From a virus, in the UHGV virus genome UHGV-0098506: a stretch of 24,443 nucleotides of DNA; one strand, given 5' to 3'. Shown piece by piece: positions 4,113 through 9,230 of the stretch. Below the pieces are notes generated by a model. It saw nothing but the letters and a program-made list of their open reading frames with translations, ran no database searches and was not told the origin of the DNA. A program made the translations under genes and the position numbers. Numbering within the stretch: position 1 is the first letter of the stretch; each line of letters begins with the position of its first letter.

Positions 4113-4398
4113 TACTGATAGCGCCATAGCGTGAGCGGTAATTACGCAGGCGCGGGTCAATTTCAGGGAAGTGGGTATATGTGGCTTTGCGGAATGGTCG
4201 GATTGATGTCTGGTAAATTCGCTCGCGTTCTTCTTTCTCTGCAAGCCATATACAGTGGCGAAATTCCTTTTCCTCTTTCGTTTCCTGCGGTAGCGACATT
4301 ATCCGATCGTAGTTTTTTCTGAATTTATCCAGCACCTCCGATACGGAATTGCCGGAACAGCGGCGCGGGTCGTCCTCACCATACAGAGGCGCTGGCAT
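4105..4398 (-). CDS. Hypothetical protein (97 aa)
   Basis: ATG at 4398 preceded by AAGGA. Begins 24 nt after the ssb stop, same strand. Confidence 0.5.
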
Positions 4399-4421
4399 AA
4401 TGGAATCCTTATGTTGCTACT

Positions 4422-4820
4422 TTAGAAGGGAATTGAATCGTCGTATTCAGGATGATTTTGATGATTGCTACTTTGCTGCTGTTGGCTGTTTCCTGAAGTT
4501 GCAAATCCAATCTTTGCATTCAGTAATTCAAGAGTGATTGATTGACCATTTTGCCCCTGATAAACATCAACCCTGATGTTTTCTCCGGTAATTTCCACAA
4601 TGCCACCTTCAACAAGAACACTACGGTAGTAATCCGCTTGCGCTCCCGGCTTGGCAAATACAACGGCGCTGTAGTTTGTCCATTCTTTCTTTTTTGTCAG
4701 GCGATCGTAATACTGAACTCCAGCACGGATGTTGAATCCGATATTTTCCCCGGCCTGAAACTCTCTTGCGGGCTTGTTTAGTCTTACAGTAATCGAGTGT
4801 GCCATTAAGCAGCCGCTCAT
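4422..4820 (-). CDS. ssb: Single-stranded DNA-binding protein (SSB family)
   Basis: C-terminal acidic tail ...PEYDDSIPF matches the SSB C-terminal D-D-D-I-P-F motif, preceded by a Gln/Gly-rich linker and an OB-fold-like N-terminus. ATG at 4820 overlaps the erf stop (ATGA coupling); alternative ATG at 4805. Confidence 0.8.
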   Translation of the reverse strand: MSGCLMAHSITVRLNKPAREFQAGENIGFNIRAGVQYYDRLTKKKEWTNYSAVVFAKPGAQADYYRSVLVEGGIVEITGENIRVDVYQGQNGQSITLELLNAKIGFATSGNSQQQQSSNHQNHPEYDDSIPF

Positions 4821-5410: not shown

Positions 5411-5511
5411 ATGTTTGTTCTCAGAATGGACATGGCCCAAGGAAATAACGCTGGTTTAATACTTCGACTCTGGACAAATTAAGGCATACCCGCATTCCTT
5501 CGCGGTCGCCA

Positions 5512-5670
5512 TTATGGCGATACCAGAGAGCTTTCTGCGTGTACATGCGTCTCTGTAACTTGCTCTCCTTCACTGTGGTTGCAAGTGACATGAATATCTC
5601 CTTCGTTACCGATTAATTCTTTCATCTGACGAATGAATTCTTCGTCTGACCAGTTATCCGTAAAACTCAT
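5512..5670 (-). CDS. Small protein (52 aa) translationally coupled to the cIII-like gene; occupies the kil-like position
   Basis: ATG at 5670 overlaps the stop of the upstream cIII-like ORF (ATGA). The kil-like label is by position only, not sequence. Confidence 0.4.
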   Translation of the reverse strand: MSFTDNWSDEEFIRQMKELIGNEGDIHVTCNHSEGEQVTETHVHAESSLVSP

Positions 5671-5837
5671 GGACGGCCTTGTTGTTTCAAAATATCCCAA
5701 AGCTTTTCGAGCAAACTTTTCACTCTTGGTTGTTTAAAGTCTGCTCCGGTTAAAATATTTTTTCGTGAATGCTGTACCGATAAAATCGGGTTGAAAGGGC
5801 GAACCGATGCCGCCCCTGCAATAGCGAACTGTTGCAT
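5667..5837 (-). CDS. cIII: cIII-like protein (56 aa; FtsH-inhibitor family), below the 60-aa cutoff of the ORF track
   Basis: Translation MQQFAIAGAASVRPFNPILSVQHSRKNILTGADFKQPRVKSLLEKLWDILKQQGRP. N-terminus MQ-FAIAG matches lambda cIII (MQYAIAG...) and the size fits. ATG at 5837 preceded by AAGGAG. Confidence 0.6.
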   Translation of the reverse strand: MQQFAIAGAASVRPFNPILSVQHSRKNILTGADFKQPRVKSLLEKLWDILKQQGRP

Positions 5838-5912
5838 AGGATGCTCCTTCTGTTTGATTGCATAACGAAAACGCCTCGAGTGAAGCGTTATTGGTATGCG
5901 GTAAAGCCGCGC

Positions 5913-6224
5913 TTAGGCGGCTGATGTTTCTTCTTTCAGGCTTTCGAGATATTTACGTGGGTCGTCGTAACATTGGCATTCGCTGTACCAATCCACCCAG
6001 CGATCAGTAAGCCCCATCTCTGATAAATCTTCATCGGTAAGGCTCTCATCCCACATCTCAAGGCCGTTAGCATTGCAGTAATCAGGCTTGATGTTGTTGT
6101 CATACTGAAAGGCGTCATAATCAGCCAGTGCGTCCATCAGGCGAACACCCTCTTCAACACTTGCCACTTCTACGATGAACGGCTTCATCGGTACTTGCGG
6201 GATATGCCAGACACGTAATTTCAT
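5913..6224 (-). CDS. Hypothetical acidic protein (103 aa, MKLRVWHIPQVPMKPF...)
   Basis: ATG at 6224 preceded by GGAGAA, immediately after an intrinsic terminator. The longer ORF-track start at 6278 would run into that terminator. Confidence 0.55.
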   Translation of the reverse strand: MKLRVWHIPQVPMKPFIVEVASVEEGVRLMDALADYDAFQYDNNIKPDYCNANGLEMWDESLTDEDLSEMGLTDRWVDWYSECQCYDDPRKYLESLKEETSAA

Positions 6225-6235
6225 ATTTTCTCCGT

Positions 6236-6263
6236 TAAAAAAATCGCCCTCACACTGGAGGGC
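6236..6263 (-). terminator. Rho-independent terminator (tL1-like) between the N-proximal unknown gene and downstream early-left genes
   Basis: Minus strand: GCCCTC-CAGTGT-GAGGGC hairpin followed by GA and T7. A second 9-bp stem hairpin (GTGTATTCA...TGAATACAC, 6325-6352) precedes it. Confidence 0.6.
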
Positions 6264-6367
6264 AAAGAAGATTTCCAATAATCAGAACAAGTCGGCTCCT
6301 GTTTAGTTACGAGCGACATTGCTCCGTGTATTCACTCGTTGGAATGAATACACAGTGCTTATTCGTA

Positions 6368-6838
6368 CTAATAAAACACCCAGTTTTCTGTTTCTTGGTT
6401 GTGTCCAAAGTTATATTCAATATCTGGTGTTGATGTATCAATATTCTTCATCCCATCAACAAGAGTTGATACAACAGCCAAATCTTGTTTGATTCTCATT
6501 AAATGGTATTTCTTCCGGCGCAATAAACTTTCAATGGCAAGTTTCTTCGTTGGGAATGCAAAAGATCTTTCTGCATTTTTTGCTACTTTCTTAATTGCAT
6601 ATCTATTTCTCTTTTGTTTCCATTCCTGTAACCACCGATTTGGTGCTGGTTTAAAATTAACAATCCAATGCGCAGGAACCAACCATGCATAATGCTCTGT
6701 CTGATGAAAAGCTATATATTGAAGTGCGAATATTTTGATCCCATCCTCTTCAACTGCCGCATGGAATCTCCAGAAAACAGGCATTCCATCATGTTCAGTT
6801 TCTGATTCAGGAAAAGGTACGCTCCATGATTTTGTCAT
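6368..6838 (-). CDS. Hypothetical protein (156 aa), AT-rich gene directly downstream of N
   Basis: ATG at 6838 preceded by GAGGTGAG, 9 nt after the N stop. Coding region is visibly AT-richer than its flanks. No family recognised. Confidence 0.6.
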   Translation of the reverse strand: MTKSWSVPFPESETEHDGMPVFWRFHAAVEEDGIKIFALQYIAFHQTEHYAWLVPAHWIVNFKPAPNRWLQEWKQKRNRYAIKKVAKNAERSFAFPTKKLAIESLLRRKKYHLMRIKQDLAVVSTLVDGMKNIDTSTPDIEYNFGHNQETENWVFY

Positions 6839-6846
6839 ATCTCACC

Positions 6847-7146
6847 TCAAATAAGTGGTTTGCTGCCTAATTTCATTTTTTGGCGACCAACACAAGTCAC
6901 ACCCATTTCACTGCGTGGCTTGCGGTAGTAAATACGATTCTGTTTATGCTCGACTTCTTCTGCCTTCTTGCAGCGAAGGCTTCCGAGTGATGCTGCTTTA
7001 TCTGCTCTGACGCAACCAGAGAGCTTTAGCGCAATCTTTCGCGCCAGTCGCTGCTCTTGCATTGCCTGTTCACGTTGAGCCTGTCTGCGTGCTCTGCGGC
7101 GATTTCTGGCGTTATCGTCAGCCAGATATGTAATGACTACTGTCAT
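6847..7146 (-). CDS. N: Antitermination protein N (lambda-N family)
   Basis: From the internal ATG (MTVVITYLADDNARNRRRARRQAQREQ...) there is an arginine-rich motif at the N-terminus. C-terminus RIYYRKPRSEMGVTCVGRQKMKLGSKPLI parallels the lambda N C-terminus. GGAGG Shine-Dalgarno before ATG at 7146. Confidence 0.8.
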   Translation of the reverse strand: MTVVITYLADDNARNRRRARRQAQREQAMQEQRLARKIALKLSGCVRADKAASLGSLRCKKAEEVEHKQNRIYYRKPRSEMGVTCVGRQKMKLGSKPLI

Positions 7147-7159
7147 GTTGACCTCCGAT

Positions 7160-7230
7160 GAAACAACTTTGGAATTGATAGTGATTGCAAAGTTGTTTCT
7201 GGCCCCTCGAATTGAGGGGCAGAAAGAGCA
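7160..7230 (-). promoter_or_regulatory. Structured N leader: 12-bp-stem hairpin adjacent to the N Shine-Dalgarno plus a second boxA/boxB-like element
   Basis: Minus strand reads TGCTCTTT-CT-GCCCCTC-AATTC-GAGGGGC, then GAAACAACTTTG-(16 nt)-CAAAGTTGTTTC, then ATCGGAGGTCAAC-ATG. This resembles the RNase III-sensitive leader hairpin of lambda N. Confidence 0.4.
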
Positions 7231-7457
7231 TCTCGCCACCTAATAGTTCGATGCTCGGATCGATAGATTTAATTAACCTCGGTTTTGAAGTTATGCATTC
7301 ACATAAATCCTCCTGTTGCATGTGCAGCATTGGCTGTGTTTGGCGGCTGCATTTCGCCTATGGAATTGACTTTGGCGGTGACGCGCCGGGTGCTTATCTT
7401 CCGGTTGCCGTCGTGCAGCTGCACTTCACGTCACCCCAAAGCCAACTACTCTTTGGT

Positions 7458-7498
7458 TCCCGCATTTCGGCGGGACAATCCCATCAATGTTAAAGAGC
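7458..7498 (-). promoter_or_regulatory. nutL (boxA GCTCTTTAACA plus boxB hairpin TCCCGCCGAAATGCGGGA on the leftward transcript)
   Basis: The same boxA-spacer-boxB arrangement occurs on the plus strand at 9129-9172 between cro and cII. Paired identical copies in the pL and pR leaders define the nut sites. Confidence 0.65.
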
Positions 7499-7544
7499 CT
7501 GCCAATCTGTTCCGTTTGGCTACCAGCGTCCTGCTGATGGCTAA

Positions 7545-7629
7545 AGAATACTGTAGGTATTTTATTGTGTAAATACCCAAGGTATTTATTTTTGGTGAAA
7601 TAATGATAAGCAAATGAATACAAAGGATA
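7545..7629 (-). promoter_or_regulatory. OL/pL: three 13-bp operators (ATAC-N5-GTAT family) overlapping a leftward promoter (-35 TTTACA, 17-bp spacer, -10 TATTCT)
   Basis: Operator-like sites at 7548-7560, 7573-7585 and 7617-7629 share ATAC...GTAT half-sites with those in OR. Promoter hexamers on the minus strand at 7568-7573 and 7545-7550. Confidence 0.55.
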
Positions 7630-7718
7630 TTTATTTTTTTCGGTGTCTGCTTGTTCAGTGCTTTTTATGCGGGATATGTGAAGTGGATCCCGATAGCTAT
7701 TGCTGCCGGGATTATAGG

Positions 7719-8087
7719 TTAGTCAGCGAAGGTTAAGACGAGAATTACCTTAATGATGTCTGCTACAACAGACACGGCCATAGATAAACCAAAGACGATC
7801 CAAGCCACAGTGATGTCTTCACTACCATCGTATAGAGTTCCGTAATCACTGGTGTAAGGCGTAAATGTCGCGCCTTGATACAATAGGTATAAGCTTGATC
7901 CATAGAGGATAAATGCAGATATCCCTTGTATTGCTATGATCACAAGAATCATGAAACGAGCTGATCTATGCGCCCAAGCCTGGCTTATTTTTTCTGATAG
8001 AGATTTCGCAATAAAAGCATGCGCTAAGCCGTAAATTGTCGAGATTGCCAACATCCCAAAAAAGCTTGCTATAGCGGTTCCAACCAT
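7719..8087 (-). CDS. Small multi-pass membrane protein (~122 aa) behind cI on the same strand; function unknown (candidate exclusion/abortive-infection protein)
   Basis: Starts 17 nt after the cI stop with AAGGGG 6 nt before ATG at 8087; the ORF-track start at 8108 is a TTG overlapping the cI stop. Three to four hydrophobic segments (AIASFFGMLAISTIYGLAHAFI, FMILVIIAIQGISAFILYG, VAWIVFGLSMAVSVVADIIKVILVL). Confidence 0.6.
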   Translation of the reverse strand: MVGTAIASFFGMLAISTIYGLAHAFIAKSLSEKISQAWAHRSARFMILVIIAIQGISAFILYGSSLYLLYQGATFTPYTSDYGTLYDGSEDITVAWIVFGLSMAVSVVADIIKVILVLTFAD

Positions 8088-8104
8088 AAGCGCCCCTTGC
8101 GTGA

Positions 8105-8821
8105 TCAAACCAGCCTTAGTTTTGTCTCAATTGCAACGCCTATAATCTTGCAGTTTCCATTGATTGGCACGAGAGGCCATGCAGGATTAAGTCCCTTGAG
8201 GTATTTATTTCCGCCGTCGATTATCAGCTTCTTGAATGTTGCTTCGTTAGAGTCAGAAAGTTTTGCTATGACCAAGCTGCCGTTGATCGCCTCCCTTCCG
8301 GTATCGAAAAGAACGAATGTTCCCTCTGGAATGCTTAACCCAACCGGTGCCGTCATTGAATCACCTTCCACTTTAAGCCAAAACGCATTACCTTGAATAT
8401 GCGCGTCAGACTCAAGCCAAACATCTATGTCTTTAATGGTGTATGGTTCGCATGCTTCACACCACGAGCCAGCCTGGATACTGCTTAACACCGGATACCT
8501 CTTTCCTGCTCTGTATTCCCCTGCATACCTTACGTTGGCATCGCTCTTAAGGCTTTCTGCCTGTTCTGCAACCTTGGCAGCAATTGACTGGCTAAAATCA
8601 GCAATTGAGACTTGCAACAATCGTGCAAAACCAGATGCAACCTCAACGTTTAGCGCGTTTCTGCCATTAAGATAATGGCCTACCGCTCCTTGGGTGATAC
8701 CCAGTTCATCAGCGATTGAGTATTGGGTTATTCCCAATTCTTTCTTTTTTGACTCATACAAAGCCTTAAGCCGCTTAGCGTCTTCCAGCTGTTCTGTCGT
8801 CAGTGATTTTTTATTTTCCAT
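8105..8821 (-). CDS. cI: CI-type prophage repressor (N-terminal HTH, C-terminal S24 LexA-like autopeptidase domain)
   Basis: N-terminal HTH (ELGITQYSIADELGITQGAVGHYLNG). Candidate Ala-Gly cleavage site followed by S24 motifs (GDSM...GTFVLFD...KKL). Divergent from cro across an operator region. Confidence 0.9.
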   Translation of the reverse strand: MENKKSLTTEQLEDAKRLKALYESKKKELGITQYSIADELGITQGAVGHYLNGRNALNVEVASGFARLLQVSIADFSQSIAAKVAEQAESLKSDANVRYAGEYRAGKRYPVLSSIQAGSWCEACEPYTIKDIDVWLESDAHIQGNAFWLKVEGDSMTAPVGLSIPEGTFVLFDTGREAINGSLVIAKLSDSNEATFKKLIIDGGNKYLKGLNPAWPLVPINGNCKIIGVAIETKLRLV

Positions 8822-8833
8822 AGCTTAATTCTA

Positions 8834-8898
8834 ATAGCTAAGGTACTTAAACTAAAAATACCCTGAGTATTGATTGCTTTGAATACCTGTAGTATTCT
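8834..8898. promoter_or_regulatory. OR region: three operator-like 13-mers with pR (-35 TTGATT, 17 bp, -10 TATTCT) and a divergent pRM candidate (TAGAAT 7 nt upstream of the cI ATG)
   Basis: Sites ATAGCTAAGGTAC (8834-8846), ATACCCTGAGTAT (8858-8870) and ATACCTGTAGTAT (8883-8895). pR hexamers at 8870-8875 and 8893-8898. Confidence 0.55.
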
Positions 8899-8927
8899 TT
8901 GTTCATGGTTAATAACGGAGAGTGCTT

Positions 8928-9122
8928 ATGATTCGAATGACACTTGCCGATTACGCCAAAATCCATGGACAGGCTAAAGCAGCCAGTGACTTTGGTGTAA
9001 TCCAGTGCGCTATCAGCAAGGCCATTCTGGCAGGCCGTAACATCATGGTTACGGTAAAGCCTGATGGCAGTGTGATTGGAGAGGAAGTTCGTCCTTTCCC
9101 AAGCAACAAGAAAAACAAATAG
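8928..9122 (+). CDS. cro: Cro repressor
   Basis: [62 protein letters not shown] parallels lambda Cro along its whole length. GGAG 8 nt upstream of ATG at 8928; the ORF-track start at 8922 is a GTG. Confidence 0.85.
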
Positions 9123-9128
9123 TAACAC

Positions 9129-9172
9129 CGCTCTTTAACAGTCATGGTCCTCATTCCCGCCGAAATGCGGGA
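9129..9172 (+). promoter_or_regulatory. nutR (boxA CGCTCTTTAACA plus boxB hairpin TCCCGCCGAAATGCGGGA)
   Basis: Consensus boxA 7 nt after the cro stop. boxB is identical to the nutL copy. A further hairpin GCGCAT-AAGTTG-ATGCGC follows at 9178-9195. Confidence 0.65.
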
Positions 9173-9230
9173 ATACAACGCGCATAAGTTGATGCGCATA
9201 ACTTATTATTTGTTAAGGAAATACTTACAT

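Follow-up and report, generated by a model that had tools for sequence, protein, structure and literature searches.

The 156-aa gene downstream of N in a P22-like prophage is an exchangeable accessory cassette that ends at a terminator of the lambdoid backbone

In a P22-like lambdoid prophage of E. coli, the antiterminator gene N is followed by an AT-rich 156-aa open reading frame (ORF) that constitutes an exchangeable accessory cassette, bounded by the junction between the N stop codon and a Shine-Dalgarno sequence and, at the other end, by a terminator element of the phage backbone. This conclusion is firmly supported by the comparisons that follow. The ORF is not a self-contained moron in the strict promoter-gene-terminator sense. 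We analysed a 24,443-nt stretch of DNA (UHGV virus genome UHGV-0098506), hereafter the window, in which the prophage runs from its left end through integrase, early-left genes, N, cI, cro, replication, lysis, terminase, portal and scaffold. Read along the minus strand, the region of interest comprises a candidate pL promoter, a candidate nutL site, N, the 156-aa ORF, a hairpin, a terminator and a homologue of P22 gene 17.

The ORF occupies positions 6368-6838 of the minus strand. Its ATG lies 8 nt past the N stop codon (TGA 6849-6847), which places the start of the gene at +9, and the GAGGTGA that comes before it matches the anti-Shine-Dalgarno sequence over 7 nt; the first-pass annotation of this DNA, which had placed a 156-aa ORF with a good Shine-Dalgarno sequence 9 nt after the N stop, was accurate on these points. 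That annotation had also called the gene AT-richer than its neighbours, and windowed GC values agree: the ORF has a GC content of 36.7% compared with a window mean of 47.7% (sd 3.1%, 471-nt windows), so that it ranks at the 0.4th percentile and is practically the stretch with the lowest GC in the window; its GC3 is 29% compared with 42% for N and 52% for the gene 17 homologue. A 97-aa antisense ORF (6399-6692, plus strand) inside the gene accompanies it wherever it occurs and probably arises as a by-product of the AT-rich sense frame.

The encoded protein matches PHROG 1636 from end to end (residues 1-156 on profile positions 1-156 of 156, E 6.1e-110), a family labelled 'unknown function'. It is 97-98% identical to L0079 of phage 933W (AAD25424.1) and to gp45 of HK97 (NP_037731.1), both annotated 'hypothetical', and to an unannotated ORF of H-19B located between N and gene 17. 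These counterparts likewise have 156 aa, lie directly downstream of N and are followed by the same hairpin and terminator element; in HK97, a 471-nt CDS sits in the same position. The 156-aa ORF is the same gene as HK97 gp45, 933W L0079 and PHROG 1636. We found it in 598 of 5426 complete E. coli genomes (about 11%), at up to four copies per genome, where its annotation is always 'hypothetical protein'. The reading frame was intact in 32 of 32 copies, representing 23 alleles, and a median pN/pS of 0.096 across these alleles reveals purifying selection. Together, these results indicate that the ORF is a real, constrained gene. Literature searches on L0079/933W and HK97 gp45 returned nothing on it; the 'gp45' of the OLD preprint is a gene of a different phage, not HK97 gp45.

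We assessed the variability of the position after N in 80 IMG/VR loci selected for an N with at least 96% identity to that of the window. The 156-aa gene was present in 29 of these loci and absent from 48, and three loci were truncated. Among the 29 carriers, 25 have the gene directly at +9, and the other four have another gene in between. Altogether, we distinguished 16 arrangements of the DNA downstream of N; the slot is hypervariable, and so does vary among close relatives as had been expected of it. At its proximal end, the cassette junction consists of the N stop codon, the Shine-Dalgarno sequence and the spacer to the ATG (TGA GGTGAGAT, 6839-6849, minus strand). Among 15 representative loci that differ in cargo, nine have unrelated genes starting at a common ...TTATTTGA GGTGA(G/T)AT ATG, with divergence right after the ATG.

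The genes that take the place of the 156-aa gene are diverse. The first-pass annotation had named the N-proximal slot as one where lambdoid phages carry ral, and 16 of the 80 loci indeed have Ral (PF11058, E 4e-48) as their cargo instead, with the same N in front of it. Other loci hold a 207-aa Nmad5-domain protein (PF18757), a PAPS-reductase-like protein (phrog_424), membrane proteins of 140 and 149 aa, or several small proteins, often in combinations; most slot-mates have no assigned function. One further alternative, a 107-aa protein (MEALVVERSEDGYW...) at the common junction in loci L013, L047 and L052, is orf184 (AFM76385.1). The PAPS-reductase-like protein has 285 aa and is accompanied by a 43-aa ORF; this pair and the Nmad5 protein (L040 3310-4303, and L003, L020 and L030 downstream of N) suggest DNA-modification functions in this hotspot. 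Mutation of Nmad5 evades Tmn (PMC11846954). We considered the Nmad5 slot-mate as a known anti-defence protein and rejected this reading: it is only predicted to be associated with modification.

The distal boundary proved to be independent of the gene. As the first-pass annotation had reported, a hairpin with a 9-bp stem and a clean intrinsic terminator precede the next gene on the minus strand: the hairpin (6324-6355) has 14 pairs with a perfect 9-bp core (6345-6353 with 6326-6334), and the terminator (6237-6265) has a stem at 6244-6265 (8 pairs, 5 of them G-C), a loop of 6 and a run of seven T (6237-6243). The 143-nt intergenic RNA has a folding energy of -47.2 kcal/mol (z = -5.1 versus shuffles), and Rfam searches matched no family anywhere in the window, including the boundary element. 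Hairpin, spacer and terminator together form a 121-nt element (6238-6358, minus strand) that is identical at 121 of 121 nt to lambda 33,925-34,045, in a phage that lacks the 156-aa gene. Its presence does not depend on the cargo: 77 of the 80 N loci have it, the other three being the truncated ones, and the distance to it from the N stop ranges from 218 to 1758 nt, as set by the cargo. It also occurs in 327 phage records, where HK97 and mEp234 annotate it as 'putative terminator'. The lambda counterpart (L088 926-1046) lies between ea10 and ral, just downstream of ral; we take it to be the tL2 terminator region described by Luk and Szybalski. The gene-specific part downstream of the ORF is only the 9 nt between its stop codon and the hairpin. 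The earlier statement that the gene is closed off by its own terminator therefore does not hold: the comparisons indicate that hairpin and terminator are a shared backbone element, not the gene's own.

Two observations concern this element beyond its place at the edge of the cassette. Between the P22-like prophage and lambda, this non-coding sequence is 100% identical in spite of different flanking genes, and its role may go beyond termination: it could, for instance, anchor the recombination by which cassettes are exchanged, or be a site of RNA processing. In L046, a 113-aa ORF on the opposite strand (about 4278-4619, that is, 978-1319 nt past the N stop) overlaps the position of the boundary element; by eye it resembles an N-terminal (OrfA) fragment of an IS3-type transposase.

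The gene is not tied to one N. The N of the window (6847-7146, minus strand; 99 aa; phrog_271, E 1e-36) has a phi21-like C-terminal part and an arginine-rich N-terminus of its own, and its match to Pfam N_peptide is weak (E 9e-4, below the cut-off of that family). In a second survey, of 80 loci chosen for carrying the 156-aa gene, the boundary element lay directly after the gene in 68 of 79. The gene follows a phi21-like N in 34 loci (with an 8-nt gap in 14) and a 933W-type N in 24 (with a 58-nt gap in 19); in the remaining 19 loci it mostly follows lambda N or a P22 gp24-type N, mostly with an 8-nt gap. The gap is 8 nt behind three unrelated N types, and behind a fourth it is 58 nt. The difference in spacing separates the window, with its phi21-like N and 8-nt gap, from HK97, 933W and H-19B, which have the 933W-type N and the 58-nt gap. 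We found that the 58-nt spacers of 933W (L001 6001-6062) and H-19B (L002 3000-3061) are homologous to the last 54 nt of the phi21-type N of the window plus the Shine-Dalgarno sequence, and the equal spacing in HK97 (L087 1467-1524) leads us to infer the same origin there. This homology suggests an old recombination event within the 3' end of N, with the spacer as its relic.

The signals around the gene place it on the early leftward transcript. In a consensus scan of positions 5500-9200, we found a single promoter-like site, compared with 7.0 +/- 2.5 in shuffles; this is the candidate pL (TTTACA-17-TATTCT, 7545-7573, minus strand). The same scan detected no promoter-like site between the candidate pL and the ATG of the 156-aa ORF. 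A conserved private promoter is also implausible because the gene abuts four unrelated N types, so that such a promoter would have to lie in unrelated coding sequences. A candidate nutL (boxA GCTCTTTAAC, boxB TCCCGCCGAAATGCGGGA) is located at 7455-7498 on the minus strand, assigned by its similarity to nutR, as the same motifs occur downstream of cro (9130-9180). We had considered the hairpin at 7202-7220 as the nutL boxB, and the comparison with nutR instead places the nutL candidate at 7455-7498. The rejected site is part of an element of its own (7202-7230, minus strand), a perfect 7-bp G+C-rich hairpin (GCCCCTC-AATTC-GAGGGGC) that lies 56 nt upstream of the N start, behind a boxA-like TGCTCTTTC, and may serve in the processing of the N leader or in translational control.

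Downstream of N, we found no terminator-like site before 6265, and the terminator at 6237-6265 is the first such site downstream of pL and N on the minus strand. Since the 156-aa gene would share the pL message with N and precedes this first intrinsic terminator, its product is likely to appear at once, with no need for N, although this timing could be changed by Rho-dependent termination or RNA processing. We propose that the gene is transcribed from pL on the N message with no transcription signals of its own, and that the ORF is translated from its strong Shine-Dalgarno sequence, with the ATG 8 nt past the N stop. Synthesis of the product would then begin as soon as infection or induction takes place, ahead of any action of N, and N-modified polymerase would subsequently read through into gp17, cIII and beyond.

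The protein itself has few points of contact with characterized families. Apart from PHROG 1636, the 156-aa sequence matched nothing in Pfam, NCBIfam or the PDB sequences, and no homology to a known anti-defence family appeared in these searches. The best result in PADLOC was Cas1_II (E 0.009, 13 bits over 45 residues), which we took as noise. The first-pass annotation could assign the protein to no family, and we found none of known function for it with these resources. A profile search of 1.8 billion cluster representatives returned 88 relatives, most of them 135-155 aa long and about 20-25% identical; distant relatives also fall in PHROGs 13631 and 25384, both 'unknown function', and 63 of 63 distant relatives also match PHROG 1636. 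Searching Pfam with these 63 relatives singly and the PDB sequences with a profile gave no match. Two apparent multi-domain relatives, P0059 (940 aa) and P0081 (444 aa), were low-complexity or repeat artefacts and thus offer no informative domain fusions. The three distant relatives that could be placed lie on 40-53-kb phage-like contigs, and two of them belong to early operons, close to genes for integrase, methyltransferases, SSB or replication.

Prophages of Pectobacterium, Brenneria, Cronobacter, Rosenbergiella and Symbiopectobacterium carry closer homologues, 55-73% identical, and 40 alignment columns are invariant. The Pectobacterium (L089 5001-5477) and Brenneria (L090 5001-5477) homologues, at 58-62% identity, are located directly upstream of xis-int, the far end of the early-left operon, and the Rosenbergiella homologue is upstream of recT. 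This distal placement in Pectobacterium and Brenneria shows that the N-proximal position is not fixed for the family outside E. coli phages.

The 156-aa protein has a mass of 18.6 kDa, a pI of 9.25, no Cys and 7 Trp. No transmembrane segment is predicted, consistent with a soluble protein. Its core is very basic (residues 61-125, pI 11.2, 18 K/R) and both ends are acidic. AlphaFold, with an input alignment that took in distant homologues, gave a model with pLDDT 91 and pTM 0.77. The predicted strands span residues 19-30, 33-46, 50-55 and 83-86, and short helices and a long helix (98-130) complete the secondary structure; the C-terminal tail, at pLDDT 80-87, bears a conserved F-G-H-N-x-E-T motif. 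The predicted fold is thus a three-stranded beta-sheet with small helices, a beta-hairpin, a 33-residue helix and a conserved tail at the C-terminus that packs back, and as modelled it appears to have no counterpart in solved structures. Foldseek against BFVD gave 12 matches at E < 1e-3, all of them uncharacterised proteins of unrelated phages, including Erwinia phiEa2809, Achromobacter phiAxp-3, Delftia RG-2014 and phages of Rhizobium, Sinorhizobium, Tenacibaculum and Cellulophaga. Across the wide family, T47, K87, R91, A94 and A101 are most conserved, followed by G33, H45, F95, L105, K109, D119, T150 and F155. An AP2-like or Int-arm-like reading of the protein was tested and found to be without support.

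The first-pass annotation had interpreted the gene as a horizontally acquired moron. Morons of lambdoid phages, such as HK97 gp15, are a concept from Juhala, Hendrix and colleagues, and the 156-aa gene resembles them in being extra relative to close relatives, in its deviant base composition and in having a terminator downstream. It differs from them in its lack of a promoter of its own, in a terminator that belongs to the backbone, and in its place within a repressed early operon rather than in an autonomous late-region unit. Hence the part of the interpretation that concerned anomalous composition and a variable slot stood, and the part that required an own promoter and an own terminator did not. 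We consider it very unlikely that the gene is a classical moron, that is, a lysogenic-conversion or superinfection-exclusion gene expressed from the repressed prophage by its own promoter and terminator for the protection or benefit of the lysogen. Such a gene would fit the low GC relative to the neighbours, the variable presence among close relatives and the terminator downstream. Its surroundings fit too: lambda sieB lies within the N-to-ral interval, accessory regions also hold exclusion genes, and the next gene (5913-6224, minus strand; PF17420, E 7e-56; phrog_1510) is the P22 gene 17 homologue, whose Pfam family, GP17, is described as 'superinfection exclusion gene product 17'. However, the terminator is common to all cargo types and identical in lambda, the only promoter-like site upstream is pL, and the gene keeps its 8-nt or 58-nt spacing behind four N types. 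Moreover, PADLOC yielded only the Cas1_II match, and the protein has no transmembrane segment, unlike SieB-like exclusion proteins.

Elsewhere in the window, a 129-aa multi-pass membrane protein is encoded at 7719-8108 on the minus strand, with its start overlapping the stop of a cI-like repressor gene (8105-8821). Its location between cI and pL corresponds to that of lambda rex, and the gene is a candidate for lysogen-expressed exclusion or defence.

Comparison with known systems bears on what the gene might do. The lambda N-to-ral interval (sieB, orf28, ral) is the same slot, with the same 121-nt element at its distal edge, and ral, like the 156-aa gene, is a small gene of the early pL operon. 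Ral modulates type I restriction-modification, a mechanism that is not transferable to the 156-aa protein: Ral has 66 aa, the two share no sequence similarity (no match to PF11058), and the 156-aa protein lacks a Cys motif. The orf184 gene of an mEp-type record (JQ182733) occupies the same slot and junction, 9 nt past the N stop, and encodes a 107-aa protein unrelated to the 156-aa protein. It is reported to trigger the gop-beta-cII abortive system and to belong to the same accessory region as ral (Silas et al. 2023, bioRxiv 10.1101/2023.04.06.535777). The slot has the make-up of an accessory region in the sense of Silas et al. 2023, as a fixed N/Shine-Dalgarno junction and the 121-nt element enclose variable content, and it holds known counter-defence genes, with Ral and orf184 as slot-mates. 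We did not find the 156-aa protein sequence in the supplements that list the 200 tested genes (bioRxiv 10.1101/2023.04.06.535777). Gene and hotspot are both listed in databases, and the literature already recognises the hotspot. As a separate observation, a 56-aa ORF (MSLATTVKESKLQRRMY...) at 5421-5591 on the minus strand of the window is a close relative of orf168 (AFH20475.1), which was among the 200 accessory genes screened by Silas et al. (bioRxiv 10.1101/2023.04.06.535777).

We tentatively favor, at somewhat less than an even chance, the idea that the 156-aa protein is an immediate-early counter-defence or host-directed binding protein. Early in infection, the product would bind a host or rival macromolecule, whether nucleic acid or protein, and would thereby serve in counter-defence or host takeover, in the manner of its slot-mates Ral and orf184. 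The counter-defence role and the binding mechanism are a guess from position and charge only: the guess draws on the slot-mates (Ral, orf184 and modification-associated genes), the neighboring gp17, the probable timing of expression and the basic, conserved surface. Position is a poor guide here: most of the slot-mates have no assigned function themselves. More doubtful is the broader proposal that this widespread, phage-specific family with a new fold provides an immediate-early inhibitor, or a sensed trigger, of a bacterial immune system that works by an undescribed mechanism.

The same features can be read without reference to host defences. The very basic conserved core, with K87, R91 and K109 kept in distant relatives, fits a DNA- or RNA-binding regulator equally well, the gene is always co-oriented with the early-left recombination, xis and int genes, and virulent phages that infect many different hosts likewise encode structural relatives. 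The protein could therefore be a phage-internal nucleic-acid-binding factor that tunes early development and does not act on host defences; the processes in question would be transcription, RNA stability, recombination or replication, or the lysis-lysogeny decision. We regard this factor as unlikely, and the assignment to these processes as just as unlikely, given that the gene is dispensable, being absent from 48 of 77 informative loci with the same N, where unrelated genes take its place, and has no tie to one recombination or replication module (Erf in HK97 and H-19B, Red in 933W). Lambdoid early-left accessory genes also include host inhibitors such as lambda Kil, and the position of the 156-aa gene in the early pL operon, upstream of cIII and of kil in related phages, together with its probable immediate-early expression, would suit a Kil-like blocker of growth or division, or another takeover factor, that is toxic alone and not aimed at immunity. 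Against such an inhibitor, the protein has no homology to any known inhibitor and its sequence indicates no target; its stable carriage in 11% of complete E. coli genomes, with intact frames and no decay, is uninformative on toxicity. We consider this host-physiology reading quite improbable. Our preferred reading remains, at its tentative strength, that of a counter-defence or host-directed binding protein.

Our findings correct a common misreading, in that low GC and a terminator downstream do not by themselves make a gene a moron; in this case the terminator belongs to the backbone, as a landmark for the distal edge of a site of cassette exchange. The gene itself is carried by model and medically relevant phages (HK97 and the Shiga-toxin phages 933W and H-19B) and by about one in nine complete E. 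coli genomes, and has never been given a function. Its placement in the N-proximal accessory region of ral and orf184, together with its probable immediate-early expression, makes it a cheap, well-defined candidate for counter-defence and abortive-trigger screens, and the confidently predicted fold, with no solved relative, makes the protein a reasonable structural target.
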